From the NCBI GenBank assembly GCA_963725325.1, contig CAVRYF010000006.1, forward strand, positions 95,993 through 159,992: 64,000 nt of DNA, in the 5' to 3' direction. Positions 6,995 through 23,831 of the stretch are shown here, in pieces. Origin of the DNA: an uncultured Acidobacteriota bacterium. GTDB lineage: Bacteria; Acidobacteriota; Vicinamibacteria; Vicinamibacterales; 2-12-FULL-66-21. The notes below the pieces were generated by a model. That model did not search any database and had not been told where the DNA came from. It was given only the letters and a program-made list of their open reading frames with translations. The translations under genes and the position numbers were made by a program. Positions within the stretch are counted from its first letter, which is position 1, and each line of letters starts with the position of its first letter.

Positions 6995-9475
6995 ATGAGT
7001 CTGCGCCTTCGTCTGATCGTCGCGTTCTTCTTCCTGTCGGTCGTGCCACTGGCGGCCGTCACGCTCTTCACGTACGCGAGTAACGCGCGCGCGATGCGCG
7101 AGGCGGCTGGCCGCGAGGCCGAGCTGCTTGCCGGCGAGCTCAGCCAGCGCATGCAGGTCGTGACCGCTCAGTTGAGCGAGCGGGTCGAGCGCCTGATGGA
7201 CGTGGCCGAGGCGCGTGCGGAAGCGACCGCGGCGGAGAGCGCCCGCACGGCAGCGCTGGCCACGACCGGCACGGTCGAGCCGGCCGCGGCTGCTCCTCCC
7301 ACCCAGGAAACGCAGGTCGCTCAGGCGCTCGGCGAGATGGCGATGCTGCTCGAGAACGTCGAGTTGCGCGGCCTGCGCGGGCCGCGTCCGCCAGGCGCGC
7401 CTGGTGGTCCGGCGGTGGCCGTGGACGGTTCGGCGGGGGCGACGGCAATCGCGGCCGCTCCGACGTGCCGCCCCCGCCTGGCGCGCCAACTGCGCCGATT
7501 CCTCCGGTCGCCAGCGTCCCGCCGGCACCGGCCACGACGGCTGTCGCGCCTCCGCCGGGCACGGAAGCGCCACCAGCCTTCGGCCGCCGTGTTCGGCGGT
7601 TCGCGTCCAGCTCCGGGTGACGCGTCTCAGGCGCGCGGCTCGGCCGCGACCTCGACTCCATCAACGAGCGACAGCGCCGCGGCCGACGCGACCTCGCGAG
7701 GCAATCCTCCAACGCCGGGAGCCGTTCCACCCGCTGGCGTCGCTCCGTCGCCACCATTTCCACCGCCGTTTCCCGATCGCCGCCCGCCGCCAGGCGCCGA
7801 GGGGCCATCGGATCCCAACGCCACACCTCGCGATCGCATCATGATCGACGTCGGTCCGATGCGGCGCGACATCGTGCGCCAGTTCGTGCCCGAGGGCCAG
7901 TGGGAGAAGCTCACCGAGGAAGAGCGTCAGCGGATCATGGCCGAGGTCAACCAGCGCATGCTCGGCATCGCGCAGGGGATCCAGCTCGGCGCGGCCGAGG
8001 CGCAGAAGCGCGTCGCGGAAGCGCAGCGCGCGGCTGATGCCAAGGCGCAGGCCGCCGTGGCCGCCGCCGTCAAGCCCGCGCCTCGCAAGGCGCCGGTTGT
8101 CGCCGCCGCGCCCGTGGCCACGGCTCGAGCGACGCCAGCGCGGCGCAAGACCGCGCTCTCCGGCACACGGCTCGACGTCACCTTCGAACGCGACGGCAAG
8201 GTCGTGCGCGCCGCGAACGCCGAAGTCAACCTGCCCAATCTCCTCGCGACGGTCCTGACCACGACGCGGCGGGATCGCGGCGAGATACCGTTTGCCGTCG
8301 GGAAGGACGGGCGTCTCTACACGCAGACCGAGGACGACAAGAAGAACATCGAAGCCATCGGCGGCGGCATCACCAAGGCCGACGAACCGGCGGGGACGAT
8401 CAGAGTCGGCGACTGGATCGTCGTGTCGACGGCCGATCCGACCGGCTCGGGACTGCGCTTCGGCATCGCGCGTCCGGTCGGCGACTCGCTGCAGACGCTG
8501 CGCCGGACGAGCGCGCGCAACGCCGCCTTCGGCCTCGGCTTCATCGGCCTCGCGCTCATCGGCATCGTCCCGCTGTCGTCGCGATTGACGAAGAATCTCT
8601 CGACGCTCAGCGACGGCGTCCATCGGATTGCGGCCGGCGACTACAGCGCCCGCGTCAAGGTCGGAGCCCACGACGAGGTCGGCCGGCTGGCCCGGGCCTT
8701 CAACCAGATGGCCGAGGACGTCGAGCTGCACCAGCGCTCGGCAGTCGAGCAGGAGCGGATCAAGCGCGAGCTCGAGCTCGGGCGGCAGATCCAGATCGAC
8801 ATGCTGCCCCAGGGTCCGCTGCGCTTCGGGCTGACCGAGATCAAGGGCGTCTCGGTGCCGGCCAAGGAAGTCGGCGGGGATTTCTTCAACTACTTCTCGT
8901 TGACCGACGGGCGCATCGCGCTGCTCGTCGGCGACGTCTCGGGCAAGGGCGTCGGCGCCGCGCTCCTCATGGCGAATATCCAGGCGTCGCTGCGCACACG
9001 GCTCGCGCTCGGTCAGGATCTCGACGCGATCGCGCGCGAGATCGACGTCGACATCGAGGGCAACACGCCCGGGCCGATCTACGCGACGCTCTTCGTGGGC
9101 ATCTTCAACCCGGCGACGCGCGAGCTGCGCTACGTCAACGCCGGCCATAATCCCCAATACATCCTCCGCACCACCCGCACGCTCGAGCGCATGTCATCGT
9201 CGGGCCTGCCGGTCGGGTTGCTTGCGGGTCGAGGCTACGCCGAGGCGCGCGTTCAGCTGGCGGCCGGCGATCTCCTCTTCTTCTACACCGACGGCTGTGT
9301 CGAGGCCGAGAACGAGGCGGGGGAGATGTTCGGCGCGGAAAAACTGGAGAGCCTGCTCCTATCAGCGGCTGGAGCCGAAGACCTGCTGGCGCGCGTCGAA
9401 ACCGTGCTCGCCGACTATCGCGGCTCGCGCGAGCCGTTCGACGATGCCACGATGATGGTCGTTAAAGTCGGGTAG
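6995..9475 (+). CDS. HAMP domain-containing PP2C/SpoIIE-family protein phosphatase (membrane sensor)
   Basis: N-terminal TM segment, a long Ala/Pro-rich region, a HAMP domain (HRIAAGDYSARVKVGAHDEVGRLARAFNQMAEDV), then SpoIIE motifs (GGDFFNYF, LLVGDVSGKGVGAALLMA, FFYTDGCVEA, DDATMMVVKV). Confidence 0.85.
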   Translation: MSLRLRLIVAFFFLSVVPLAAVTLFTYASNARAMREAAGREAELLAGELSQRMQVVTAQLSERVERLMDVAEARAEATAAESARTAALATTGTVEPAAAAPPTQETQVAQALGEMAMLLENVELRGLRGPRPPGAPGGPAVAVDGSAGATAIAAAPTCRPRLARQLRRFLRSPASRRHRPRRLSRLRRARKRHQPSAAVFGGSRPAPGDASQARGSAATSTPSTSDSAAADATSRGNPPTPGAVPPAGVAPSPPFPPPFPDRRPPPGAEGPSDPNATPRDRIMIDVGPMRRDIVRQFVPEGQWEKLTEEERQRIMAEVNQRMLGIAQGIQLGAAEAQKRVAEAQRAADAKAQAAVAAAVKPAPRKAPVVAAAPVATARATPARRKTALSGTRLDVTFERDGKVVRAANAEVNLPNLLATVLTTTRRDRGEIPFAVGKDGRLYTQTEDDKKNIEAIGGGITKADEPAGTIRVGDWIVVSTADPTGSGLRFGIARPVGDSLQTLRRTSARNAAFGLGFIGLALIGIVPLSSRLTKNLSTLSDGVHRIAAGDYSARVKVGAHDEVGRLARAFNQMAEDVELHQRSAVEQERIKRELELGRQIQIDMLPQGPLRFGLTEIKGVSVPAKEVGGDFFNYFSLTDGRIALLVGDVSGKGVGAALLMANIQASLRTRLALGQDLDAIAREIDVDIEGNTPGPIYATLFVGIFNPATRELRYVNAGHNPQYILRTTRTLERMSSSGLPVGLLAGRGYAEARVQLAAGDLLFFYTDGCVEAENEAGEMFGAEKLESLLLSAAGAEDLLARVETVLADYRGSREPFDDATMMVVKVG

Positions 9476-9773: not shown

Positions 9774-9857
9774 GGGCCATTCGGGCTTTCTTGATCGGAT
9801 TCCAGTCGGAGTAGGGCCAGCCGAAGTTCGAGCCTTCCTTCACGGCGTGCATCACCG
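9774..9857 (-). pseudogene. ~26-codon relic of a PQQ-dependent dehydrogenase paralogue
   Basis: The minus strand reads VMHAVKEGSNFGWPYSDWNPIKKARM. The intact gene reads VMHQVKEGSNFGWPYSYWDPIKKARM at 22950-23033. I counted about 88 percent nucleotide identity over ~66 nt. No ORF context exists on either side. Confidence 0.6.
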
Positions 9858-9885: not shown

Positions 9886-10500
9886 ATGAACGGCGAAGGG
9901 ACTGGAGATCGCGCCGGCCTGAGCGACGAGGTAACTTCGACGTCGCTGGCTCTACTCGCTCGCGCCCAGGCGGGCGACGTGCAAGCGCTCGAAGATCTTC
10001 TCGGCCGGTTGCTGCCGCGCCTGAGAACCTGGATCAGCGGCAGGTTGCCAGGCCGCTATCGTGACCTGTGCGACACAGAAGACCTCGTGCAGGACACGGT
10101 CGTTCGAACCCTGCGGATCCTTCCAGCATTCGAAATCCGACACGACGCTGGCCTTCAGGCGTACCTGCGCCAGGCGCTGTGGAACCGGCTGCGGGAAGAG
10201 ATCAGGCGCTCGGGCCGTCGCGGGCCCTCCGAATCACTCGATGAATCGCTCGCAGCAACGGATTCCTCCCCGCTGGAGCGGGCGATAGGCCTCCAGGCGA
10301 TCGAGCGATACGAAGCGGCGCTGCAGAAGCTGGAGGACGACGAGCGCAGCGCGGTCATCGGTCGCCTCGAGCTCGGCTACTCGTATCCGGAACTGGCGCT
10401 GCTACTTGGCAGGAATACGCCTGATGCGGCGCGCAAGCTCGTCGAGCGTGCCATCCCGAGGATCGTCACCTGGATGCGAGATGACGCACCGGCCGCCTGA
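9886..10500 (+). CDS. ECF-type RNA polymerase sigma-70 family factor
   Basis: ORF 9649..10500 trimmed to the ATG at 9886. It has region 2 (DTEDLVQDTVVRTL) and a region 4 HTH (GYSYPELALLLGRNTPDAARKLVERA). Its stop overlaps the downstream kinase start. Confidence 0.85.
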   Translation: MNGEGTGDRAGLSDEVTSTSLALLARAQAGDVQALEDLLGRLLPRLRTWISGRLPGRYRDLCDTEDLVQDTVVRTLRILPAFEIRHDAGLQAYLRQALWNRLREEIRRSGRRGPSESLDESLAATDSSPLERAIGLQAIERYEAALQKLEDDERSAVIGRLELGYSYPELALLLGRNTPDAARKLVERAIPRIVTWMRDDAPAA

Positions 10501-12895
10501 GTACGCCCACCTCGTCGAGGCGATTGTTGATGGGCGATCGATCGACGTCGTCCCGTCGCTTGACGATGATCGGACGCTCTCTCAGCTACGGGTGCTGCTC
10601 GAGATTGCCCGCGTCCACCGCGAGGCTTTGACCGTCGACGGCGTTGCGGGAGCATCGGTCGGCGCTGCACCGCCGGTGTCACTCGGTCACTCCACGTCGC
10701 GTTGGGCACACCTGCACCTGCTCGAGTCAATCGGACACGGTTCATCCGGCATGGTCTATCGGGCGTGGGACAGCCGGCTCGCAAGGGAGGTGGCGCTCAA
10801 GCTGATGCCGGCGGGAGGGACGTCGACCTCGTCCACGCTCGTCGAAGCCAGACGCCTGGCTCGCATACATCACCCGCACGTGGTCTCGGTGTACGGCGCC
10901 GATCAGATCGACGGCCGGGTCGGCGTCTGGATGGAACTGCTGAGGGGCCGTACGCTGCACGACGTGGTTCGGGCACAAGGGCCGCTGAGCGCGCGAGAGG
11001 CGGCGCTCCTCGGTGCCGACGTGTGCTCCGCGCTCGCCGCGGTGCACGGCGCGGGATTACTCCACCGCGACATCAAAGCCCAGAACGTCGTCCGCGAGCA
11101 CGGGGGCCGCATCGTCCTGATGGACCTCGGTGCAGGCCGTGAGATGGCCGACGATCCCTCGCTCGACCTGGCGGGGACGCCACTCTACATGGCGCCGGAG
11201 CTGTTTGTCGGAGGGCCCGCGACCGTCAGGAGTGACATCTACAGCCTGGGCGTGCTGCTTTTCTTTCTGACGACCGGATCCGTGCCGGTGGTTGCTTCCA
11301 CCTTGACCGAGATCCGCCGCGCGCACGAGCAGGGCCCTCGGAAGTCGTTGCGGGACCTGCGGCCAGACCTTTCGCGTGCGTTTGTCGAGACGGTCGATCG
11401 GGCGATCGGACCTGATCCAGCAGACCGGTTTGCGAGCGCGGGCGAGATGGAGCGAGCACTGTCAGCCAGCATGGGGGCTCGCCCCGTCGTCGTTCCCGCC
11501 TCGCCCAACAGGTCCCCGCTCGGTCGCGTTCTTGGCAGGAGCATTCCTGCATGGGCGGCGATTGCGCTGGCGCTGCTGGGGGGCTTGCTGGTTCTGGTTG
11601 CCGAGAACGTCAATCCGTTCTCTCGACGTGTGTCACCCGGTGTGGCGGTACCTGCGGGCGGCGGGACAGACGCGGGCGTCCGTCCCCTCAGTGCCGACCA
11701 GGCAAAGATTGCCCGCGGCTTCGAGGAACTCGGCTCGACGCTCGCGAGTCGCGGCGAGTGGGACCAATCGGTGCCGCAGTATGCCGAGGCTGAGCGGATC
11801 TACCGCCTCAACACCAACCCGGACGCTCCGCTGGTTGGCACCGCGCTGGCCAGGCTCGGGTGGGCGCAGCAGCACGCGGGGCAGCTCGAGGCGGCGCGTG
11901 GCAACTACGAGCTCGCGCTCGCCAAGTTCGAGAACTTCGACGTCGCCGCATGGACCGAGACGACCCTGGTTGCTCTCGCATCGCTCCACCAGCGCGCCGG
12001 TCGTCAACAGGACGCCGCGGAGGCCCTCGGTCGCGCGCTGCGAGTTCGAGCGCGGGTCCTGCTGGGATCGCACGATGATGTTGGCGGCCTCGCCCGAGTT
12101 GGCGTGGCCGTCGATCGACTGGAGAGCTCGCTGGCGTCAGTGCCGCTCGATCAAGACGGCGACGGCGACTGGCTGCCGGATGCGCTCGAGGTTGCCCTGG
12201 GCTTGAATCCACGATCGTCCGATGGGGACGGAGATGGCGTACCCGATGGGGACGAGGACGTGGACGGCGACGGTGTGTCGAACTGGCTCGAGTTCGGGGT
12301 GACCGTCGATCCGACGAAGATGATTGCGCACTTCGGCGGAGTCGATCCCGAATGGCTCGGGTTTCAGCAACCGGACAACCGGCGGTTCGTCGGGCGTTCC
12401 CTGACGTCGGCAGCGGCTCCAGCCTGGAAGATACCGAGCACCGGGCAAAGCATCTACTTCCATCCCCTCACTGGCGCCCAGCGCGCGGCGGCCATGACCC
12501 GTGGATGGCGATTCGTGACGCGAGGAGAACTGCACGAGGGCGTCGGACGGGTTGCGCTCGATTTGAGTCCTGATGGACCGCTCTTCGACCTGGGTTTCTA
12601 TCAGGAGGGGGCGACCGGCACCGACGTCCGCGTGATTACGAGCGTCGTGCCGTTGACGGGTCCGCTCGAATCCGCGTCTCGCGTTGGTCCGTGGCCACTG
12701 CTGGGCCTCGACTACGAGCCGTCGACGAAAGGCGCGGCGCTCGTGGTGAATGGTGCACGGCGGCCCATCGAGCCCTACGCTGGCCACAATCAGTTTCAAG
12801 ACGACATGGGGTTCTTCTTTGCTGCGAGCATCGGGCCGGGCAAGTCGGCGCGAAGTGATGTGGATTTCAACATCGTCAGGCTCGTGATTCGGTGA
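10481..12895 (+). CDS. membrane Ser/Thr protein kinase with TPR-like, TSP3-like Asp-rich repeats and a C-terminal beta-rich ectodomain
   Basis: Kinase motifs are GHGSSGMVYRA, VALKLM, HRDIKAQN, DLGAG and YMAPE, followed by one TM segment (WAAIALALLGGLLVLV) and DQDGDGDWLPD...DGDGDGVPDGDEDVDGDGVSNWLE. The ATG at 10481 overlaps the sigma gene by 20 nt. Confidence 0.85.
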   Translation: MTHRPPEYAHLVEAIVDGRSIDVVPSLDDDRTLSQLRVLLEIARVHREALTVDGVAGASVGAAPPVSLGHSTSRWAHLHLLESIGHGSSGMVYRAWDSRLAREVALKLMPAGGTSTSSTLVEARRLARIHHPHVVSVYGADQIDGRVGVWMELLRGRTLHDVVRAQGPLSAREAALLGADVCSALAAVHGAGLLHRDIKAQNVVREHGGRIVLMDLGAGREMADDPSLDLAGTPLYMAPELFVGGPATVRSDIYSLGVLLFFLTTGSVPVVASTLTEIRRAHEQGPRKSLRDLRPDLSRAFVETVDRAIGPDPADRFASAGEMERALSASMGARPVVVPASPNRSPLGRVLGRSIPAWAAIALALLGGLLVLVAENVNPFSRRVSPGVAVPAGGGTDAGVRPLSADQAKIARGFEELGSTLASRGEWDQSVPQYAEAERIYRLNTNPDAPLVGTALARLGWAQQHAGQLEAARGNYELALAKFENFDVAAWTETTLVALASLHQRAGRQQDAAEALGRALRVRARVLLGSHDDVGGLARVGVAVDRLESSLASVPLDQDGDGDWLPDALEVALGLNPRSSDGDGDGVPDGDEDVDGDGVSNWLEFGVTVDPTKMIAHFGGVDPEWLGFQQPDNRRFVGRSLTSAAAPAWKIPSTGQSIYFHPLTGAQRAAAMTRGWRFVTRGELHEGVGRVALDLSPDGPLFDLGFYQEGATGTDVRVITSVVPLTGPLESASRVGPWPLLGLDYEPSTKGAALVVNGARRPIEPYAGHNQFQDDMGFFFAASIGPGKSARSDVDFNIVRLVIR

Positions 12896-12914
12896 CGGTC
12901 CGGCAGACGGGACT

Positions 12915-14855
12915 GTGACGAACGTGCTCGACGGGCAGACACTCCAGCGCCTCGTGCAGGTGACCGGGCCGCTCAGTGCGCGCGAGGCGGCCCTCATCGG
13001 GGTGGATGTGTGCACCGCACTGAGTGCCTTGCATCGGGTGGGTTTGGCTCACGGGGGCGTCACGGCAGACACGGTACTCCGGCAGCACGGCGGGCGGATC
13101 GTTCTCGGAGGTGTTGACGGCCGGGGTGAGAACGCGGGTCCGGCGTCGCCCTACACGGCACCGGAAGTGATCGCTGGGAAAACGGCCACGACTTCGAGCG
13201 ACATCTACAGCCTTGGTGTTCTACTCCTGTTTCTCTCGACCGGATCAGTCGCCTTGGCTTCGGTGAAGTTGAACGAGACACATACCACGGACCGAACTGG
13301 CGCGACGAGATTCCTGCGCGATGTGCGGCCCGACCTGCCGCGGGCGTTCGTGGAGATCGTCGACCGCGCGCTTGCGCACGCCCCCGGCGATCGGTTCGCG
13401 AGCGCCGAGGAGATGAGACGTGCGCTGGCCACCGTGATCTCACGCGCCTCGGATCGCCAGGAGGGCGACGCCAAGAGCCCTGCCGGCCTGCTGGCCTGGA
13501 CGCACCCCGCCAGGGTCGTCGCCGCCGTCGTGATTTCCGTACTCGCGATGATGGTCGCCGTCACGGTCGCGCCCCTCTCGTGGAGAGGCTTCTTGACGCG
13601 CACGGCGCCGGCTGCCGATCGCGGGATCGCTGGCGCCGTCCGTGGCCTGACCGCCGATCAGGCGAAGATTGCCTTCGGCTTCGAGGAACTCGCGTCCTCG
13701 TTGGCTGGTCGCGGCCAGTGGGAGCAGTCAGCAGCACAGTACGGGGAAGCCGAGCGTATCTATCGACTGAATATGGGCCCGGACGCGCCGCTCGTGGCCG
13801 CGGCGCTCACCAGGGTTGCCTGGGCGCACCAGCACGCGGGGCAGTTCGATCTGGCGCGCCGCGACTACGAGCTCGCGATCGCCACATTCGAGGATGCCGC
13901 CCCTGGCCCGCTTCTGGAAGTCGCACTTGGGGCTCTGGCCTCGCTCCAGCAACGTGATGGCCGCTTCGCCGATGCCGTCGCCTCGATCGATCGTGCGCTC
14001 ACGTTGCGCGCTCAGATCCTTCAGCAATCCGCCGATCCGACCCGAGGCCTGTCGCGTATCGGCATCGACTCTTCGGTGTTGGCCGCGCTGATGTCCTCAC
14101 ATTCCCTCGCAGACGACGAGGACGGCGACTGGCTGCCTGATTTGCTTGAAGTTGCCGTCGGATTGCGCCCGGATTCGAGCGATACCGACAGAGACGGGGT
14201 TCCGGACGCCGAAGAAGACCACGACCTCGACCGAATTTCGAACGTCGTCGAGTTCGGGTTGACCGCGGATCCCACGAAGATTGTTGCTCACTATGGCGCG
14301 GTGGACCCCGAATGGTCAGGGTTTCAGCAGCCCGCGAACCGGCGATTTTCGGGCCGTGCGGCGGGCGTGCCGTCCGTCGCAGCGTCGTGGAACGTTTCAG
14401 GCCCAGGTCAGCTGATGTACTACCAGCCTCTCACGAGTACCCAGAAGGCAACCGCACTCCGTCGCGGCTGGCGCCTGATGGCTCGAGGCTCGCTGCATCG
14501 TGGCGGCGCGTTCGCGAATGTAGACTTCGAACCTGGCGGTCCGCGTTTCGACTTGGAGTTCCTCCGCAATGCCGCTGACGGCGTCGACGTTCAGCTGAAT
14601 ACCAGCGTGGTGCCGTTCGAGGGACCCATCGAGCACGTGTCGGGAGGCGATCGCTGGGCGCTCACCGAGCTCTTGTACGATCCCACCCTCGGGCGCGCGA
14701 CGATTCTCATCGACGGGGTTCGACGGTCTCCCCAATACGCCGGCCACAAGCAGTTCCAGGAGGGTCTCGGGCTGTTCTTTGGCACTTGGGACGTCTTCGG
14801 TAAGGCCACATCGGGTGACGCCGATCTCGGCCTCGTGGTGTTCGTCATCCGCTGA
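12915..14855 (+). CDS. N-lobe-less pseudokinase paralogue of the upstream kinase (C-lobe remnant + TM + TPR-like + TSP3-like + C-terminal domain)
   Basis: It aligns to the upstream kinase from the alpha-D region onward (GPLSAREAAL, SDIYSLGVLL, DRFASA.EM.RAL). HRDIKAQN is replaced by AHGGVTADT, and DLG and the whole Gly-loop/Lys N-lobe are absent. The start is GTG. Confidence 0.7.
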   Translation: MTNVLDGQTLQRLVQVTGPLSAREAALIGVDVCTALSALHRVGLAHGGVTADTVLRQHGGRIVLGGVDGRGENAGPASPYTAPEVIAGKTATTSSDIYSLGVLLLFLSTGSVALASVKLNETHTTDRTGATRFLRDVRPDLPRAFVEIVDRALAHAPGDRFASAEEMRRALATVISRASDRQEGDAKSPAGLLAWTHPARVVAAVVISVLAMMVAVTVAPLSWRGFLTRTAPAADRGIAGAVRGLTADQAKIAFGFEELASSLAGRGQWEQSAAQYGEAERIYRLNMGPDAPLVAAALTRVAWAHQHAGQFDLARRDYELAIATFEDAAPGPLLEVALGALASLQQRDGRFADAVASIDRALTLRAQILQQSADPTRGLSRIGIDSSVLAALMSSHSLADDEDGDWLPDLLEVAVGLRPDSSDTDRDGVPDAEEDHDLDRISNVVEFGLTADPTKIVAHYGAVDPEWSGFQQPANRRFSGRAAGVPSVAASWNVSGPGQLMYYQPLTSTQKATALRRGWRLMARGSLHRGGAFANVDFEPGGPRFDLEFLRNAADGVDVQLNTSVVPFEGPIEHVSGGDRWALTELLYDPTLGRATILIDGVRRSPQYAGHKQFQEGLGLFFGTWDVFGKATSGDADLGLVVFVIR

Positions 14856-14997
14856 CCGCTACGGTCTCCTGACAAGTCTTCCCCGCCGACGACTTTCATG
14901 TCGTTTGGCGTGAGGATCCAACTTGTCTGTCCGCAAAGCCGCCTCTTCGACATTGGTGTGGTTGACGAGCTAGTGTGCCACTGGCTGGGAGGCCGAG

Positions 14998-17904
14998 ATG
15001 CGAACGCCGCGCGCTGCGGGATTGGTCGCGACCGCAATTCTCGTCTCGCTGTTGCATGTTCGCGGCGGGGCGGCACTGCTGTCGGAACATGTCGGCGCCA
15101 CAAACCCGACCCCCGAGGGCTTCACACGGTTCAGCACGACCACCGCCACCAGTCCCGTCCTCAACTATGCCACCGCGGCCGCCCCCACAGCGCCGACGAC
15201 GAGCTACGCGGCCTGGCAAGCCGCTGCGCCGCCGGCTCTGACGACGGTCGATTTTGAGGCTTTTGCGACCGGAACGCTTCTGACGGGCAACGAATACGCC
15301 GCCCTTGGCCTGACGCTCATTCAGCGCGACGGCGATCCCATGCGAATCGCCTCGCCAGGAGACGGCTCGTTCACATCGACCGCCAACGTCAGGTCTCCGA
15401 CGCATGTCGTATCGTCGTCCGCGATTCCTGGGTCTTCCTCCGGATACGACGGTTCGCGGTCCGAAAACTACGACTTCATCTTTGCCAATCCGATAATGGC
15501 TGCTGGCCTCTGGGTTGGTAATCTCAATCCGGGGTTCAACACCGTCGCCGTCGAGTTCCTCGACGCTGCCGGTGGGGTAATAGCTACGCAGCCGCTCAAC
15601 ACTCTCGACTCCAACCTCATTAGGGGCACCGGGCAATACGACAACCGGCTGTTCGTCGGTATCAATTCGGTGACGCCGGTCAAGCGAATCCGCGTCAACA
15701 ACGCGGCTGGCGATCAGGACGGGATCGTGTTCGACGACGTCGTCTTTGAACCCCCAGGCAATCCAGTACCAAGCCTGACCAGCCTCTCGCCTTCGAGTGC
15801 CGGCATCGGCGCGCAGAGTTTCACCCTCACCGTCAACGGCAGCGACTTCGTAAATGGGGCCGAGGTGCGGTGGAACGGCGCCGCCCGTGCGACGACGTTC
15901 GTTGCCGGTAGCCAGGTGCGCGCGACGATTCCGGCGAGCGATGTCGAGGCGACTGGTACGGCGAGCGTCATGGTGGTCAACCCCTCGCCCGGCGGGGGCA
16001 CGTCGAACGGACTCGTCTTCACGACGAAGCCGACCGTGTCACTCGATAAGACAAAGTTGACATTCGGCGCGGTGACGTCCGGCCAGAGCTTTCTGTTTCA
16101 GACGGCGGCACAGGTCGTTCGGCTCACGCAGACTGGCGGCGGGACAGTCACCTGGACTGCAGCGTCGAACCAGCCGTGGCTGCAGGTCAGCCCGTCGTCG
16201 GGCACCGGTTCGTCGAGTCTGTCAATCAGCGTGAGGCCCGCCACCGGACTGCCTCCAGCCGGCACGCTCACGGGTGCCATCAGCTTTACATTCGCTGGGG
16301 CATTCAATACCGCAGGCCCAATTACGGTGAAGCTCAACCTACTGAGCGGCACATCTGCAGAGCCCTTTGGCTTCGTCGACACGCCGTTCGACGGCATCTC
16401 TGGAGTGACGGGCGCCGTGCCGTTCACAGGCTGGATGCTCGACGACGTCGAAGGCGTGCGGGTCATGATTTGTCGGGCGGCGGTCGGATCGGAGGTCGCA
16501 CCAGCGGATCCGAACTGCGCCGGCATGAACCAGATTTTTGTCGGCTTCCCCGTGTTCATCGATGTCGCGCGGCCGGACGTCGAGGCGGCGTACCCTGAGA
16601 TTCCTCTCAACAGTCGCGCCGGCTGGGGCCTGATGGTCCTGACCAACATGCTGCCGAGCCAGGGGAATGGGACGTTCCTGTTCTACATCTGGGGCCAGGA
16701 TCGTGAAGGAAACACGAAGCTGCTCGGCACACGAACGATCACGTGCGACAACGCGCACGCGACGAAGCCGTTCGGGGCGATCGACACGCCCACCCAGGGA
16801 GGCGTGGCGTCGGGCACCGCTTTTGTGAACTTCGGCTGGGTGCTGACGCCGTTGCCCAAGACGGTTCCGACGGATGGTTCGACGATCAGCGTGCTCGTTG
16901 ATGGGGTGGTTGTGGGTACGGCTGATTACAACTACTTCCGCGATGACATCGCGAAAGCGTTTCCCGGTCTGAACAACACGAACGGGGCAATCGGTGTCCG
17001 TATGCTCGACACGACGACGATGACGAATGGAACGCATACCATCGTCTGGGTGGTCACCGACAATCAGGGAATCACCGAAGGGATCGGGAGTCGCTTCTTC
17101 AACGTCTCGAACGGAGTCGGGGCGGTGACGGGTTCCGTCGACGATACGCGGCCATCCGAGCGATCGATCTCGGCCGCTTCGACTGCTCCGGTCGACTTCC
17201 TGCCGAAAGACACGTCACTCGTGCTCGGGCGTCAAGGGTGGGATCTTGATGCGTCCTACCGTCTGTTGCCCGAGGATGACCTCGACAGGCTCGTCGTGCG
17301 CAGCGAGGAAGTCAATCGCATCGAGCTTCAGCTCGGCGCCGGGGAATACAGGGGGCACCTCCGCGTAGGCAGGGCGTTGAAGCCGCTGCCCACAGGGTCC
17401 CGTCTCGATGCGGCGACGGGCGAATTCACGTGGGCACCGGGGCCCGGTTTCGTCGGCCCGTACGATTTGGTTTTCGTCCGGCATGTCAACGGCCGCGCGG
17501 TGGCGCGCCGTGAGGTTCGCATCGTTCTGCTGCCCAAGGACCGCAGAGCGGCCGGGCCTCAGGTCGTGATCGATACGCCGGCGGCGCGGCGAGTGGTGAG
17601 CCAGCCATTCGCACTCGCAGGGTGGGCGGTGGATCTCGATTCGCCGTCAGGCACTGGTATCGCTGCCCCGCATGTCTGGGCGTATCCACTCGCGGGCGGG
17701 CGTCCGGTGTTTCTTGGCACCACCAAATACGGCGGCGCACGCACGGATGTCGAGGCGCTTCATGGCGAGGAGTTCAGGGGTTCGGGGTTCGACCTTGTCG
17801 TTCAGGGCCTCGCACCGGGGACCTACGACCTGGCGGTCTTCGCGTGGAGCATGTCGCGGGCTGACTTTCTGCCGGCGCGAACAGTGCGAGTCACGGTTCG
17901 ATGA
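14998..17904 (+). CDS. large secreted protein: N-terminal beta-rich domain, IPT/TIG, BACON-like, three Ig-like xIDTP..GW modules
   Basis: GGGAGG lies 5 nt upstream. Signal peptide [22 protein letters not shown]-like region [28 protein letters not shown]-like region [32 protein letters not shown]. Repeated modules begin [14 protein letters not shown] and VVIDTP. Confidence 0.8.
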
Positions 17905-17997
17905 TCTCGTTGCCGGTCTTGCGCATTCAAGTGCCTCCGTAAGGGTGGTCGTTCGCCCGGCGGTTGCCGTCAACTGATTCGTCTCTGAGGAGGACCC

Positions 17998-20900
17998 ATG
18001 GCCGTACGGCGAGCGCGGCGGCAACCAATCCTGGCGATCCCTGACACGCACCAAGCGACGGCCGTCACGCTTGTGCTGTGCCTTGGCTTGAGCATCGCGG
18101 GCTCCGGTCGCGTGTTCGCCCTGTTCGGGTGGCCGCGAGCAGCGACTGGCAGGGTCGCTGATGGCCAGCTCGTTGCCGTTGCGACACGGTCGAGTCCGTT
18201 CAGTTCCCAACCGTGGACCGCGGTGCCGACCTTCAGCGAACGTCCTATATCGGGATCGACTGCCGAGCTGCAGGAACAGGACGAGTGTCAAAGCAACGTA
18301 GAGGGTGCCCTGTGGCCACCATACTGTGACGGCTATACCTATTGCGATATGTATCGCGAGGTGTGCAGGCTCAGCGCGCGCATTGGCTATTTCCGCGTGC
18401 GATTCGAGAGCTCGTGTCCGCCGTGTCAAGCACCATTTCGTCTGACCGCAGGAGAGAGTCGTCGGCGGCCGCTCTCCACGTCCGTGATTCCGAACGCCTC
18501 GACCGTGCACGCCGACGATAGCTCGGCGCATACGCTGCCAGGCGAAACCGCCGTCGATCAACCGGCGACCGGCGATCTGCTGGTTCGAGTCAGTGTGTCG
18601 TCGACCGGAGCCCAGGCGACTGGTGGTAGCAGCATCGTTCCCGCGCTCAGCGCAGACGGCCGCTTCGTCGCGTTCGACTCCGGCGCGACAAGTCTCGTTT
18701 CAAACGACACGAACGGCAAGCGGGACGTGTTCCTGCACGACCGAACGACGTCTCAAGTCACGCGAGTCAGCGTGGCGCCTGGAGGTGTTCAGGCCAACGG
18801 CGATAGCCTATCGCCCGCCATCAGCGCGGACGGACGGTACATCGCGTTCCTATCGAGCGCCACCAACCTCGTGAGTGGAGACACTAACGGGGTCGCTGAC
18901 GTCTTCGTGCACGACCGTCAGTCGGGAACGACCGAGAGGGCGAACCTCGGGCCCTCAGGCGTCCAGGCCAACGCCGCGTCGTGGCCGTCGGACTTGGCCT
19001 GGTACCTCGAGGGGGACATGTCGCGGTCGCAGGTGGCGATGTCGGAGGATGGACGATACGTGGCGTTCATCTCGGGCGCCACTAACTTCGTCCCGCCCGT
19101 TGCGGGTGTTCCGGGAGCCGGGGTCTGCATTCGCGATCGCCAGCTCGCCCAGACCTCGTGCCTCGGTCGTGCCGGCCGTGATGTGACGATGAGCCGCGAT
19201 GGTCGATTCGTTGCGTTCTCCGACGGCGGCGTCTACATTCACGACCGGACGACTGTCCAGACGCAGCTCGTGAGCGTCAGTCGAACCGGTGGCGCCGGCA
19301 ACGCCGCGTCTCTTGCCCCATCGGTTTCCGATGACGGGCGATACGTGGCGTTTACCTCGGACTCGACCGACCTTCTGGCCTCTCAGGCCGGCGGCCCACG
19401 CGGCATTTACCTGCGCGATCGGCAAAACGGTACGACGACGATGATCAGCGGCGGGCGGAATTTCCACCCATCGATCAGCGGCGACGCGAGATATGTGGCA
19501 TACGCAAGGTTCGGCGTTGGAGAGGTCGTGCGGTTCGATCGGATGACCTCGCAGATCCGAGTCATCAGTCGACCGCTCAGTGGGACAGATGCGTCCAATG
19601 CCGCGAGCTTCGGCGCCGCGATCAGCGCCGACGGCCGGACAGTGGCTTTTGCCTCGGCGGCGACCAACCTGATTCCCGGCGACACGAATGGTCAGGACGA
19701 CGTGTTCGTCGCGCCAGTTGGCGATGAGCTGCCGACCATGGCGCTCGACAGGACGTCGCTGCGGTTCGGTGCCGTCAGCAACGGCGCAGGGTTTCTGTTT
19801 CAGACGTCTTTGCAGACCGTACGCCTGACCCAAACCGGACCCGCTACTCCAGTGACGTGGACCGCGATTGCAGCTCAGCCATGGATCCAAGTGAGTCCTT
19901 CGTCCGGCACTGGATCGTCGGCGTTGACCATCACGGTCGGTCAAAGCGCTGGCGTGCCGCCGACAGGAACTGTCGCCGGCGCCGTCAACATCGTGTTCAG
20001 CGGTGCCACGAACACTGTTGGGCAGGTGTCGGTGACGCTGAACGTAATGCCGAACGGAACGTCCCTCTTTCCGCTCGGCTTCGTTGACACGCCGACGGAC
20101 CATGCCACGGGCGTGACGGGAGCCATTCCCTTTACCGGGTGGGCGCTCGACGATGTCGAAGTCGTCAACCTCTGGATTTGCCGTGCGACGACCGCGGGAG
20201 AAGGAGCGGCCGCCGACGCCCGGTGCAACGGCAAGGCTCAGGTGTTTCTGGGCGACGGCGTGTTCATCGAGTTCGCAAGGACTGACGTCCAGCTGTCGTA
20301 CGCCAACTTCCCACATAACAGTCGAGCGGGCTGGGGATTCATGGTTCTGACCAACATGCTTCCTGCGCAGGGCAACGGCACCTACGTGTTCTACATCTAC
20401 GCGAAGGACGCAGAGGGGCGCGTCGTGCAGCTCGGTACACGCACGATCACGTGCGCCAATGCGAGTGCGACCAAACCCTTCGGGACGATCGACACGCCCA
20501 GGCAGGGTGACGTGATTTCCGGGACGAGCTACGTGAACTTCGGGTGGGCGTTGACGCCGCAGCCGAAGGCCATTCCCACGGACGGTTCGACCATCACAGT
20601 CATCGTCGACGGCGTGTCGGTAGGAAAAGCGGACTACAACCACTATCGGCCGGATGTCGCTGGCTTCTTTCCCGGGCTCGCCAACACGAACGGCGCGATC
20701 GGATTCCGCATCCTCGACACGACGGCACTTGCCAACGGCCGACATACGATCTCATGGACCGTGACCGACAATCAGGGCGTGACCGAAGGCCTCGGAAGCC
20801 GCTTCTTTACCGTGTTCAACGGTGCGGGCACTGCGGCGAACACAACGGAGGTCGCCAATCGCGGCGCGGCCGCCGCCGACACCAGTGCCGATGCCCTCGC

Positions 20901-21615
20901 ACGGATACCCTCCGATGGCGCGCCGGTGTTAGGGAGACTCGGCTGGTCCGACGACGCGCCATGGGTCGAATACCACGCCGAGCCTCCTGGCCGCACGGTC
21001 GTGAGGAGCGAAGAGGTCACACGAATTGAGTTGCGGATGGGAAACACCAAGGGACTGTATGCGGGCTACCTGCGCGTCGGTGACGCGCTCGTTCCGTTGC
21101 CAGCCGGCTCGCATCTGGATCGCGCTACCGGCCAGTTCACGTGGGCGCCGGGAGCCGGGTTCATCGGGTCTTACGATCTCGTGTTCATAAAGCGGGCCGA
21201 TGGCATGCGCGCGTTGCGTCAGGAGGTGCGAATCGTCCTGCAGCCGAAAGGGCGGCACCTTGTCGGACCGCAGATTGCTATCGACATGCCAACCACCCAG
21301 CAGGATGTTGGGCAGCCGTTCGTGCTCGCAGGGTGGGCGGCGGATCTCGATTCGCCGTCAGGCACTGGTATCGCTGCGCTGCACGTGTGGGCGTATCCGC
21401 TCGCGGGCGGTCCACCGGTGTTTCTTGGCACCGCCAAGTACGGCGGCGCGCGCACGGATGTCGAGGCGCTTCATGGCGAGGGATTCAGGGATTCGGGATT
21501 CGACCTTGTCGTTCAGAGCCTCGCGCCGGGGACCTACGACCTGGCGGTCTTCGCCTGGAGCATGTCTCGGGCCGACTTTCTACCGGCGCGAACAGTGCGA
21601 GTGACGGTTCGATGA
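17998..21615 (+). CDS. large secreted protein: Cys-rich N-terminus, ~8 PD40/TolB-like propeller repeats, BACON-like, three Ig-like modules (paralogue of 14998..17904)
   Basis: GAGGAGG lies 5 nt upstream of the ATG. There are repeated SADGR[FY]VAF.S.ATNLV..DTNG..DVF motifs. The C-terminal ~600 aa are collinear with the upstream paralogue. The first ~190 aa are atypical, so the start is uncertain. Confidence 0.78.
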   Translation: MAVRRARRQPILAIPDTHQATAVTLVLCLGLSIAGSGRVFALFGWPRAATGRVADGQLVAVATRSSPFSSQPWTAVPTFSERPISGSTAELQEQDECQSNVEGALWPPYCDGYTYCDMYREVCRLSARIGYFRVRFESSCPPCQAPFRLTAGESRRRPLSTSVIPNASTVHADDSSAHTLPGETAVDQPATGDLLVRVSVSSTGAQATGGSSIVPALSADGRFVAFDSGATSLVSNDTNGKRDVFLHDRTTSQVTRVSVAPGGVQANGDSLSPAISADGRYIAFLSSATNLVSGDTNGVADVFVHDRQSGTTERANLGPSGVQANAASWPSDLAWYLEGDMSRSQVAMSEDGRYVAFISGATNFVPPVAGVPGAGVCIRDRQLAQTSCLGRAGRDVTMSRDGRFVAFSDGGVYIHDRTTVQTQLVSVSRTGGAGNAASLAPSVSDDGRYVAFTSDSTDLLASQAGGPRGIYLRDRQNGTTTMISGGRNFHPSISGDARYVAYARFGVGEVVRFDRMTSQIRVISRPLSGTDASNAASFGAAISADGRTVAFASAATNLIPGDTNGQDDVFVAPVGDELPTMALDRTSLRFGAVSNGAGFLFQTSLQTVRLTQTGPATPVTWTAIAAQPWIQVSPSSGTGSSALTITVGQSAGVPPTGTVAGAVNIVFSGATNTVGQVSVTLNVMPNGTSLFPLGFVDTPTDHATGVTGAIPFTGWALDDVEVVNLWICRATTAGEGAAADARCNGKAQVFLGDGVFIEFARTDVQLSYANFPHNSRAGWGFMVLTNMLPAQGNGTYVFYIYAKDAEGRVVQLGTRTITCANASATKPFGTIDTPRQGDVISGTSYVNFGWALTPQPKAIPTDGSTITVIVDGVSVGKADYNHYRPDVAGFFPGLANTNGAIGFRILDTTALANGRHTISWTVTDNQGVTEGLGSRFFTVFNGAGTAANTTEVANRGAAAADTSADALARIPSDGAPVLGRLGWSDDAPWVEYHAEPPGRTVVRSEEVTRIELRMGNTKGLYAGYLRVGDALVPLPAGSHLDRATGQFTWAPGAGFIGSYDLVFIKRADGMRALRQEVRIVLQPKGRHLVGPQIAIDMPTTQQDVGQPFVLAGWAADLDSPSGTGIAALHVWAYPLAGGPPVFLGTAKYGGARTDVEALHGEGFRDSGFDLVVQSLAPGTYDLAVFAWSMSRADFLPARTVRVTVR

Positions 21616-22163: not shown

Positions 22164-23831
22164 CTAGCGCTGCGCCTTGACCTGCGCCGCTGTCACGGCT
22201 GACGCCCCCTTACCAAACGCGCGACGGACGAACGTGAGCGTGTCGGCGATGTCGACGTCGCTGAACGCCGCGGCAAACGGCGGCATCTGGACGGCATACT
22301 TCGCCCGGTTGGCCGGGAGGACCTGCGCGGGTCCCTGCAGGACGACTTTGATGAGCGTCGCCGGATCGCCCGCGACCACGCTGCTGCCGGCGAGCGGCGC
22401 CTGCAGTCCGGCGACGCCGGTGCCGTCGGGCATGTGGCACGCCGCACAGACCTGCTGATAGAGCTGCGCGCCGCGCGAGCCGTCGTTCGTCGCCGTGCTG
22501 GCTGGCGTCGTCTGGAGCGCCGGCCGCACCGCGGTGCTCGTCTCGCCGGTGTAAATCACTCTCCAGATGCGCCCTTTCTCGGTATCGCCGATGTAGAGCG
22601 ACCCGTCGGGGCCCACGGCCAGCCCGAGCGGACGAAAACGTGCGTCGCCCGTGCTGACGAACTCACGCTTGCCGGCAAAGTCATCGGCAAATGTTTCGTA
22701 GGTGCCGACCGGCATGCCCTTGTCGTCGAACGGCACGAAGGCGATCTGATAACCCGCCTGCGCGCGCGGCGCGCGGTTCCACGATCCGTGGAAGGCCACG
22801 AACGCGCCGTTTCTATACTTCTCCGGGAATTGCGTGCCGGCGTAGACCGTCATCTGGATCGGTGCCCAGTGTCCGGGGAACGCGATGACCGGCTTGTCGT
22901 ACGGATCGGGATCGACTCGCTTGATGTTGTCGCCCCCGAACTCGGGCGCGACCATCCGGGCTTTCTTGATCGGATCCCAGTAGGAGTACGGCCAGCCGAA
23001 GTTCGAGCCCTCCTTCACCTGGTGCATTACTTCGGAAACGCGCTCCGCATTGTCGAGCGCGTCGTAGTGTTCAGGATCGACGACGTTGAGGTTGTCGCGT
23101 CCCATCTGGACCATGAAGAAGCTCTTCGAGACCGGTTGCCACGCGAGCGCGAGGGCATGGCGATGGCCCGTCGAGAAGCGCACGCCATCGGCCTGCGTCT
23201 GATTCAGCTTGTTCGCATCGAAGCGCCAGAAACCGCCGTAGGTCTTCTGGAACTCGGTCGCGTCCATGCCTTTCGCGCCGAGCTGGCGGTCGGGCTTGCT
23301 GTAGACGTTGTAAGGAGATCCGATCTCGACGAGCATCCGTCCCTGATCGTCGAAGGCGAATGCCTTCGCGTCGTGATCCCGCTCAGCCGGCAGGTTCGAG
23401 ACGATCGTCTGCAACGGGCTCGTCGGCACGAGCTCGTCAGGCGTGTACTTGTATCGATACACGGCCGTCCGGCTCGAGTGATAGAGCCAGCCGTCGTGGA
23501 AGGCGATGTGCGTGCCGCCGTCGCCTGGGCCGAACTCCTTCGTCTCGTCGATGCGGCCGTCGCCGTTCGTGTCGCGCAGGGCGAAGATCTGACCGAGCCG
23601 CGTCTTGGCGTAAATATCGCCATTTGGCGCGACGGCGATGCCGCGCAGTCGCTCGGCGGTGTTCCCGGCTTTTCTGCCGACGACGAGATTGTCGGCCACG
23701 ACGAGCGCACGGAAGCCCGGCGGTAGCGTGATAGCGCCGTCGTCAGGGTCAGGCGCCGGGAGTTTTGATTGCGCGGCGCCGAGGGTGAAAGCCGAGACGA
23801 GGACAAGGGAAGAAAGGAGCAGATTCTTCAT
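22164..23831 (-). CDS. PQQ-dependent sugar (sorbosone-type) dehydrogenase with C-terminal cytochrome c domain
   Basis: Trimmed to MKNLLLSSLVLVSAFTLGAAQ (signal peptide). The propeller motif is GSNFGWPYSYWDP. The C-terminal haem motif is CAACH, with a downstream Met (QMPPF). Confidence 0.85.
   Translation of the reverse strand: MKNLLLSSLVLVSAFTLGAAQSKLPAPDPDDGAITLPPGFRALVVADNLVVGRKAGNTAERLRGIAVAPNGDIYAKTRLGQIFALRDTNGDGRIDETKEFGPGDGGTHIAFHDGWLYHSSRTAVYRYKYTPDELVPTSPLQTIVSNLPAERDHDAKAFAFDDQGRMLVEIGSPYNVYSKPDRQLGAKGMDATEFQKTYGGFWRFDANKLNQTQADGVRFSTGHRHALALAWQPVSKSFFMVQMGRDNLNVVDPEHYDALDNAERVSEVMHQVKEGSNFGWPYSYWDPIKKARMVAPEFGGDNIKRVDPDPYDKPVIAFPGHWAPIQMTVYAGTQFPEKYRNGAFVAFHGSWNRAPRAQAGYQIAFVPFDDKGMPVGTYETFADDFAGKREFVSTGDARFRPLGLAVGPDGSLYIGDTEKGRIWRVIYTGETSTAVRPALQTTPASTATNDGSRGAQLYQQVCAACHMPDGTGVAGLQAPLAGSSVVAGDPATLIKVVLQGPAQVLPANRAKYAVQMPPFAAAFSDVDIADTLTFVRRAFGKGASAVTAAQVKAQR

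Follow-up and report, generated by a model that had tools for sequence, protein, structure and literature searches.

A tandem twin of a receptor Ser/Thr kinase, lacking the N-lobe and the catalytic residues, appears to be retained by selection in an uncultured Acidobacteriota bacterium

In metazoa, the KIND module of Spir/SPIRE, PTPN13 and very-KIND is a kinase-derived C-lobe used for protein interaction (PMC11231147, PMC3934834). Bacterial pseudokinases have been catalogued only recently: an atlas of bacterial Ser/Thr kinases describes seven pseudokinase families (ActPs1-3, CP1, DYD, DLHK and GLW), defined by catalytic-residue substitutions and indels, and the word 'truncated' never occurs in its text (bioRxiv 10.1101/2025.01.12.632604). 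In type VIIb secretion, the bitopic proteins EssB/YukC carry a pseudokinase on the cytoplasmic side of the membrane (PMC3526858, PMC9600267). Transmembrane Hanks kinases are also known to activate extracytoplasmic function (ECF) sigma factors of group ECF43, as in the pairs PknS-EcfK of Xanthomonas citri and PknT-EcfP of Vibrio parahaemolyticus (PMC13147305, PMC8999054, PMC7826278). ECF43 sigma factors lack the acidic DxxD of sigma-2.2 and have a QTTA consensus with a phospho-acceptor Thr; 'pseudokinase' occurs 0 times in the PknS-EcfK paper, and no twin partner is mentioned there (PMC13147305). Here we describe a 64,000-nt stretch of DNA from an uncultured Acidobacteriota bacterium (contig CAVRYF010000006.1, positions 95,993 to 159,992; 'the window' denotes this full stretch), in which an open reading frame (ORF) at 12915-14855 encodes a protein, 'the twin', that repeats the receptor Ser/Thr kinase encoded just upstream from the hinge onwards. 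Sequence comparison gives good support to the view that the twin is a selected gene and not a decaying pseudogene.

The twin shares features with each of these systems and departs from each. Like KIND, it has a kinase C-lobe only, with neither N-lobe nor catalytic residues; unlike KIND, it is bacterial and membrane-anchored, carries an extracytoplasmic sensor and is encoded beside its active parent. Its C-lobe-only form is clearly independent of KIND in origin, and a Pfam scan of the C-lobe (E<=1) listed only Pkinase and PK_Tyr_Ser-Thr, with no KIND model. Like the atlas pseudokinases, which are conserved Hanks-type homologues without VAIK-Lys, HRD-Asp or DFG-Asp, implying non-catalytic roles, the twin combines kinase homology with loss of the catalytic triad residues by which pseudokinases are recognised. 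It differs from them and from EssB/YukC in lacking the whole N-lobe, its gene starting at the hinge, so the complete bilobal fold of the described bacterial pseudokinase families is not present. EssB/YukC, moreover, have both lobes and serve a secretion system, whereas the twin lies in an ECF-sigma/kinase operon. ActPs1 often lacks the G-helix, as does a second twin described below. As in the ECF43 systems, the sigma gene adjoins a receptor Ser/Thr kinase gene, and no classical anti-sigma gene was recognised beside the pair; the window sigma differs in having an acidic DTEDLVQD in place of QTTA. The closest working precedents are PknS-EcfK and PknT-EcfP.

The twin ORF (12915..14855, + strand) comprises 646 open codons. 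Upstream lie the gene for an active-looking receptor Ser/Thr kinase (804 aa; 10481..12895, +) and, overlapping the kinase start by 20 nt with its stop, the gene for an ECF-type sigma factor (204 aa; 9886..10500, +). The kinase stop codon, TGA, occupies 12893-12895, and the kinase-twin spacer (12896..12923, +) measures 19 nt to a GTG at 12915 and 28 nt to a GTG at 12924. Start codons occupy the position equivalent to 12924 in two relatives, ATG in the orthologue at locus L011 and TTG in the twin at locus L017, so the true start is probably GTG 12924, three codons into the listed ORF. The ORF cannot extend upstream because a TGA lies at 12885-12887 in its own frame, and no N-lobe is hidden in another frame because the DNA before it is taken up by the C-terminal coding sequence of the kinase. 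The same two facts rule out an N-lobe gained through another frame or a read-through fusion; a +1 shift at CGG-TGA-C was likewise rejected, as it would yield a topologically senseless fusion. A check of the gap between the kinase and twin genes found no terminator-like site. The four relevant genes (ECF sigma, kinase, twin and a BACON-domain protein) all run in one direction, and the twin is most likely co-transcribed with sigma and kinase; the operon-like layout suggests that twin and kinase would be co-expressed. With G+C contents of 0.71/0.51/0.76 at codon positions 1/2/3, the twin gene has a coding-type composition that resembles that of the kinase gene, in a window of 63-69% G+C.

We compared the twin with the kinase residue by residue. 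BLASTP gives 324/655 identities (49%) in a collinear alignment over the shared region, from the hinge at kinase residue 177 (829-aa numbering; ELLRGRTL in the kinase, VLDGQTL in the twin) to the last residue (...VIR). Pfam Pkinase matches the twin at profile positions 77-255 of 263 only, and the C-lobe alone at positions 78-256 with 42.8 bits. The Gly-rich loop, the VAIK lysine and the alpha-C glutamate that mark an active kinase are all missing with the N-lobe, as is the kinase's 75-aa N-terminal extension. What remains on the cytoplasmic side is a C-lobe remnant from hinge/alpha-D to alpha-I (aa 1-183; 12915..13463, +), delimited by Pkinase, AlphaFold2, Foldseek and invariant positions. In its catalytic-loop relic (13044..13073, +), LAHGGVTADT replaces LLHRDIKAQN, so that the His is kept and the Arg, Asp, Lys and Asn are lost; in the relic of the Mg-binding DFG motif, here DLG (13107..13124, +), GGVDGR replaces MDLGAG. 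The catalytic Asp, Lys and Asn and the DFG Asp are replaced in both the window twin and its L011 orthologue. The activation segment is ~7 residues shorter, and the P+1 Gly-Thr-Pro is gone. The HRD His and the APE motif are kept, as are an Asp in alpha-F and an Arg in alpha-H/I; in an alignment of 39 sequences, E84 (APE Glu), D96 (alpha-F Asp) and R160 (alpha-H/I Arg) of the twin do not vary. A two-piece kinase supplied with an N-lobe in trans was rejected on residues alone, with no search made for such an N-lobe, because the C-lobe lacks the catalytic Asp, Lys and Asn and the DFG-Asp.

An earlier, sequence-only reading of the window had described much of this. Its 646-codon frame just behind the kinase stop, the alignment that begins past the N-lobe (at the hinge by BLASTP, at position 77 by Pkinase) without Gly-loop or VAIK lysine, the replacement of HRDIKAQN by AHGGVTADT, and the collinearity of transmembrane segment, tetratricopeptide repeats (TPRs), Asp-rich repeats and C-terminal domain with those of the kinase are all borne out, and the escape it left open, an upstream start that would restore an N-lobe, is closed by the in-frame TGA at 12885. 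Other details need amending. The DLG motif is indeed lost, but the replacement given as GGV is one column off, the aligned column reading GVD; the statement that all catalytic residues are gone holds for the Asp, Lys, Asn and DFG Asp, but the HRD His is retained and the structural core of the C-lobe is intact; and the divergence, put at 40-45%, was slightly underestimated (~50% by BLASTP).

The losses are selective. Ten full-length kinases share 40 invariant C-lobe columns, and the twin retains 31 of these; the other nine comprise the HRD-Asp, the catalytic-loop Lys and Asn, the DFG-Asp with its next neighbour, an Ala, the Gly-Thr-Pro of P+1 and a single Pro that follows alpha-F. Retention of family-invariant columns is 47/51 in the ectodomain and 23/25 in the C-terminal domain; an invariant Gly, residue 598, is replaced by Arg in the third Asp-rich repeat. 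Compared with family members, the TPR and C-terminal domains reach the level of similarity that genuine kinases show among themselves; the C-lobe alone falls short of it, by 10-19 points. Judged by the residues, this pattern reads as the signature of a pseudoenzyme retained for its fold.

An AlphaFold2 model of the twin, built with the 39-sequence alignment, has a mean predicted local distance difference test score (pLDDT) of 84.8 and a predicted template modelling score of 0.65. The C-lobe (aa 6-183) is modelled confidently, with pLDDT mostly >90, except in the shortened activation loop and in the alpha-G region (aa 117-130), which is divergent and of low confidence. In a Foldseek search of the PDB, the C-lobe aligns with the kinase domains of PknB, PknA and Stk1 (E ~1e-7, ~180 columns), and PknB L33D interface mutants are among the hits. 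A single transmembrane helix follows (aa ~199-221, ARVVAAVVISVLAMMVAVTVAPL; 13509..13577, +), collinear with that of the kinase; AlphaFold2 places a helix at 200-216 with low pLDDT, and confidence is low throughout the linker and transmembrane part. The extracytoplasmic TPR region of six helices (aa 247-370; 13653..14024, +) matches TPR_12 (E=1e-10) and TPR_NPHP3 and is modelled with pLDDT >90. Next come three Asp-rich, thrombospondin-type-3-like repeats (DEDGDWLPDLLE, DTDRDGVPDAEE and DHDLDRISNVVE; 14112..14249, +), seen in the sequence as three copies of the motif DxDxDGxxDxxE, the third degenerate; against NCBIfam they give weak matches, to CglD (E=8e-4) for the twin and to MtsD for the kinase. 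The C-terminal domain (aa 456-646; 14280..14855, +) is predicted to be a beta-sandwich with strands at pLDDT 90-96. It has no match in Pfam at E<=10 and nothing meaningful among PDB sequences, where the best match (E 0.016) is an unrelated capsid protein. Foldseek, in contrast, matches it to the sialic-acid-binding lectin domain of Vibrio cholerae sialidase, 2w68 (2w68_B and 2w68_C; TM-score 0.73-0.76, target-normalised; ~200 columns, 18% identity), and also to 1kit. The model thus indicates a ConA-like lectin fold, as in sialic-acid-binding domains of CBM40 type, assigned by structure and without membership of a sequence family.

Parts of the ectodomain recur elsewhere. Twin aa 439-624, mostly the ConA-like domain, match a 2449-aa open frame in the same genome (G000:C14:1157116-1157667, locus L008) with 31% identity (E=2e-12), and the Asp-rich repeats occur 12-15 times in metagenome proteins of 2400-2600 aa (P0150, P0157). 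From this recurrence, the ConA-like domain and the Asp-rich repeats look like mobile extracellular modules without family annotation.

We next consider selection on the twin and its age. At L011 (ENA ERZ25039492 contig_5045) the order sigma-kinase-twin-BACON is as in the window, and the twin there (P0003) is intact, 93% identical to the window twin and free of indels. We estimated the ratio of non-synonymous to synonymous change (dN/dS) as the Nei-Gojobori pN/pS of this single close orthologue pair. With 46 synonymous and 50 non-synonymous differences, the ratio for the whole twin gene is 0.39 (p=5e-6 versus neutrality); it is 0.28 (p=1e-6) in the ectodomain (aa 246-646) and 0.64 in the linker and transmembrane part. 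The kinase gives 0.25 for the same pair, its C-lobe alone having too few changes for an informative value. Third-codon-position identity between window kinase and twin is mostly 0.3-0.5, reaching <=0.7 in a few patches, and no exact nucleotide match between them exceeds 17 nt in length; this marks the duplicate as old, with synonymous sites that are largely saturated. By the same measure, no recent gene conversion between window kinase and twin was found. Across the 646 codons there are 0 stops or frameshifts, and all kinase-twin indels are in frame. In a maximum-likelihood tree of the shared region (31 sequences), the twin clade is sister (89/84) to the clade of the window kinase, P0004 and P0006/7 (95/90), and its stem branch is 0.57 substitutions/site, against 0.30-0.45 for the sister-clade kinases; the branch is thus of a length comparable to that in true kinases, and the acceleration is mild rather than runaway. 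The sequence-only reading had proposed an old duplicate kept open by selection and had named frameshifts, stops or a dN/dS near 1 in orthologues as evidence that would tell against it. The orthologue is intact and its ratio well below 1, and saturation with an open frame, the selective loss of residues and the second twin all point the same way.

The similarity between window and L011 is uneven along the DNA. From window 9857 to ~16000 (L011 6939 to ~13000), the sigma-kinase-twin block and the first kb of the BACON gene have 93-99% nucleotide identity (dS 0.08-0.15), whereas the flanking genes reach 70-87% only (dS 0.53-0.63). This contrast suggests that the block was recently exchanged between the two lineages by recombination or transfer.

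To place the twin in its family, we made an exhaustive, profile-free search over 1.84 billion cluster representatives. Approximately 25 full-length clusters (765-820 aa) share the kinase architecture, and only 1 cluster is truncated at the hinge, that of the window twin itself. At E<=1e-40, the family occurs in 0/12 representatives of same-genus species and 0/48 of other related species, and in a phylum-wide sample 1/400 genomes has it, namely G365, which is 100% complete and contains one copy. In every locus read (window, L011, L013, L014, P0008 contig, L015/16, L017 and L018), the gene immediately before the kinase gene codes for an ECF sigma factor.

A second lineage with a twin was found at L017, a 3.5-kb contig (JGI 3300086628) whose kinase, P0004, is the nearest one to both window genes. 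Here, 42 nt past the stop of the kinase gene, a TTG in the position of that same hinge codon (LLKAQTLQELVQAQGP...) starts a twin without N-lobe, which can be read for 201 residues, through the transmembrane helix, to the contig end; it is seen on this one short contig only. Its 88% identity to the neighbouring kinase includes HRD...N and DLG, which are still present. A 3-residue deletion and a Thr-to-Ala change affect its P+1 loop where the larger deletion of the window twin falls, and a 17-residue deletion takes out alpha-G. Compared with its neighbour, it has dS 0.28, dN 0.067 and dN/dS 0.23 (p=1e-7). Nucleotide identity between the two is 0.82, 0.98 and 0.70 in successive segments, a mosaic suggestive of gene conversion in the C-lobe core. 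The kinases of the two twin-bearing lineages are 59% identical. The twins may have arisen once, in which case L017 later underwent conversion and other lineages lost the twin, or on two separate occasions. The spacers of window and L017 have no similarity beyond chance (p=0.58), and the match of the window spacer to the kinase's beta-5 codons (11/18) is not significant. As to whether the twin always lies beside an active kinase, which the sequence-only reading had asked, an intact kinase adjoins it in 3/3 twin loci, two of which, window and L011, are close orthologues, so that two lineages are represented.

Further searches added no twins. A homologue search with the L017 twin fragment (P0270) returned generic short kinases (~50% identity) only, and scans of metagenome and genome contigs with a C-terminal-domain alignment were dominated by generic DxDGDxLPD (TSP3-like) repeats, with no true family locus. 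An apparent ectodomain-only class of five proteins (P0124, P0127, P0139, P0144 and P0244; 398-405 aa) was rejected: the two that we looked up start 14 and 316 nt from contig ends and are assembly fragments. All five begin just after the transmembrane helix of family kinases. The conserved kinase domain seems to be a place near which short-read assemblies are repeatedly interrupted, and such breaks can mimic a class of this kind.

PknB-type receptor kinases are activated by back-to-back N-lobe:N-lobe dimerisation, and a kinase:twin pair would be unable to form this dimer because the twin has no N-lobe. Our preferred reading, to which we give a probability of roughly 0.5, is that the twin is a functional, non-catalytic receptor subunit that pairs with the kinase, either as an attenuator or gate of the sigma pathway or as a second ligand-binding subunit. 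We hypothesize that kinase signalling is coupled to the ECF sigma factor, and that the twin, an old tandem paralogue in the same operon-like unit, would assemble with the kinase through homologous extracytoplasmic, transmembrane or C-lobe parts. Signalling from a Ser/Thr kinase to an ECF sigma factor has its precedent in PknS/EcfK and PknT/EcfP (PMC13147305). Dimerisation with the kinase, as co-receptor or decoy, was the suggestion of the sequence-only reading, and on the present evidence it is an inference. Inability to form the activating dimer favours a built-in attenuator or gate of sigma activation, whose effect would most likely be damping; alternatively, the twin would be a second ligand-binding subunit that alters what the pair senses. 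Sequestration of the sigma factor by the twin, in the manner of an anti-sigma factor, is unlikely, as the twin lacks the N-terminal extension and the P+1 loop. Among eukaryotic receptors, the BAMBI pseudoreceptor, truncated TrkB.T1 and HER3 are kinase-less or dead forms that enter non-productive or modulatory heteromers. The twin resembles them in sharing the kinase's type of ectodomain and transmembrane segment with a crippled cytoplasmic part; it differs in that they are eukaryotic and unrelated in sequence, and in that the heteromer of the bacterial pair is a proposal.

Several observations weigh against this pairing. In the window lineage, current constraint on the C-lobe remnant is not demonstrated, its orthologue dN/dS being 0.69 (p=0.23), and between window and L011 it has changed at 17/180 residues in the twin as against 6/183 in the kinase, or ~3x faster. 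Alpha-G is a known kinase-kinase and substrate docking surface; its divergence and low model confidence in the window twin and its deletion from the L017 twin disfavour a front-to-front contact of the C-lobes. The L017 twin is known from a single contig and for its first 201 residues only. The twin is also rare, having been seen in two lineages: no twin follows the kinase in L013, L015/16, L062 or L014, and G365 has none, so the kinase works without it. More tentative than the pairing itself, and possible rather than probable, is that hinge-start twins are a recurrent bacterial class of regulatory subunits with genes just behind those of receptor Ser/Thr kinases, a counterpart of KIND kept parent-like by occasional conversion, to which the L017 mosaic points. 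Here, where no anti-sigma factor is recognisable, the twin would then be the negative regulator: with the ligand-binding ectodomain in common but no N-lobe, it would poison the N-lobe dimer and set the sigma threshold.

An unlikely alternative is that the twin is an autonomous, membrane-anchored TPR/lectin ectodomain serving as a ligand sink, decoy or envelope lectin, with the C-lobe as an eroding, vestigial anchor. The degenerate alpha-G, purifying selection that is seen in the ectodomain but not in the C-lobe or the linker and transmembrane part, and a C-lobe that is the sole region less conserved with respect to the family than true kinases are what such erosion would leave. Random erosion, however, would not leave 31/40 invariants with losses mostly in the catalytic and substrate loops, nor a C-lobe that is confidently modelled and still ~50% identical to kinases after synonymous saturation. 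The L017 twin, moreover, has a dN/dS of 0.23 over C-lobe and linker, both lineages share the exact hinge start, and a bare transmembrane anchor needs no 180 folded residues.

We consider it improbable that the twin acts in the cytoplasm as an adaptor or a platform for docking, either a KIND-like module or a phospho-acceptor of the kinase, that recruits a SpoIIE/PP2C phosphatase or the sigma factor. A gene for a HAMP-SpoIIE/PP2C membrane phosphatase, identified by Pfam, does lie directly upstream of the sigma gene (6995-9475) and is syntenic in L011, and the structural core of the C-lobe is kept; metazoan KIND shows that a lone kinase C-lobe can be an interaction module (PMC11231147). The canonical surfaces for substrates and partners are gone, however, with the P+1 loop deleted and alpha-G degenerate, the 75-aa extension that is the best candidate for sigma binding is absent from the twin, and Pfam gives no KIND match. 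Apart from the window and L011, moreover, no family locus that we read has a SpoIIE gene beside the sigma gene. A relic without function, left by partial duplication, open by chance and only recently released from constraint, is a highly improbable reading of the twin and fits the sequence data poorly: the twin's rarity and narrow lineage, a C-lobe dN/dS not significantly <1 in the only close orthologue pair and the greater ease of chance open frames in a 67% G+C genome are outweighed by the whole-gene dN/dS, by a frame free of stops and frameshifts despite ~50% protein divergence and saturated synonymous sites, and by selective residue retention, an intact orthologue and a second lineage with a constrained twin.

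Turning to the neighbouring genes, the kinase consists, in order, of a 75-aa N-terminal extension, a full kinase domain (Pkinase E=4e-37, profile positions 2-252), a transmembrane helix, TPRs (TPR_12), Asp-rich repeats and a ConA-like domain, and in the family alignment its kinase motifs are all present. The extension (aa 1-75; 10481-10705) is conserved across the family, with the consensus A..AI.DG...D....L.VL.EIARVHR, and has no match in Pfam; contact with the ECF sigma factor may be its role. The window sigma matches Pfam Sigma70_r2 and r4_2, and in NCBIfam it scores 52.8 bits for sigma70-ECF, above the cut-off, its best subfamily, Sig-70_plancto1, lying below the cut-off. Its sigma-2.2 motif is acidic (CDTEDLVQDT; CDTNDLVQET in the L017 sigma, L017 1-504) and lacks the QTTA of ECF43. 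Because only the general ECF cut-off is passed and the motif is acidic, on present sequence grounds we do not assign the window sigma to ECF43, and any control by the kinase may work by different means than in that group.

Downstream, 142 nt after the twin and in the same position in L011, lies the gene for the first of two giant secreted paralogues (968 aa; BACON_2 and choice-of-anchor-Z repeats; 14998..17904, +), a candidate target of the sigma factor. The second paralogue (1205 aa; 17998-21615) has PD40-type beta-propeller repeats and a weak BACON_2 match, and the gene downstream of the kinase in L015 encodes a repeat that by eye looks similar ('DGR.VAF.S.A.NLV'). In every locus readable, the gene behind the family kinase or twin encodes a secreted protein. 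Its kind differs by locus (L013 6891-7787; L062 2626-3447; L015 4782-8777; window 14998-21615) and includes PEP-CTERM-tailed proteins, a protein of >1332 aa and the BACON/PD40 giants; BLASTP of the L013 and L015 downstream genes against the twin and the BACON protein found no relationship. It is plausible that these downstream secreted and PEP-CTERM proteins are sigma targets.

A 79-nt stretch upstream of the sigma gene (9777-9855) is 88.6% identical to 22952-23030, in the gene right of the cluster. The counterpart of window 22249-22574 in L011 lies between the phosphatase and sigma genes, and the position of the cluster relative to its neighbours therefore differs between the assemblies. G+C at third codon positions is 0.74-0.76 in the cluster genes (window 9886-21615) as against 0.85 in the flanking SpoIIE phosphatase gene, which is consistent with a history different from that of the surroundings.

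What is new here is a second lineage with a twin that starts at the same hinge codon behind the kinase. The finding also defines a small, unannotated receptor family with TPRs, Ca-type repeats and a ConA-like lectin domain, linked to a sigma gene in all loci read. A twin beside its active parent is a compact natural experiment on what a C-lobe and a sensor can do without catalysis. If twin and kinase do pair, the twin would be a candidate regulator for kinase-coupled ECF sigma factors that have no anti-sigma factor, and bacterial receptor Ser/Thr kinase signalling would be tunable by heteromers with dead subunits, as it is in eukaryotic receptor families.

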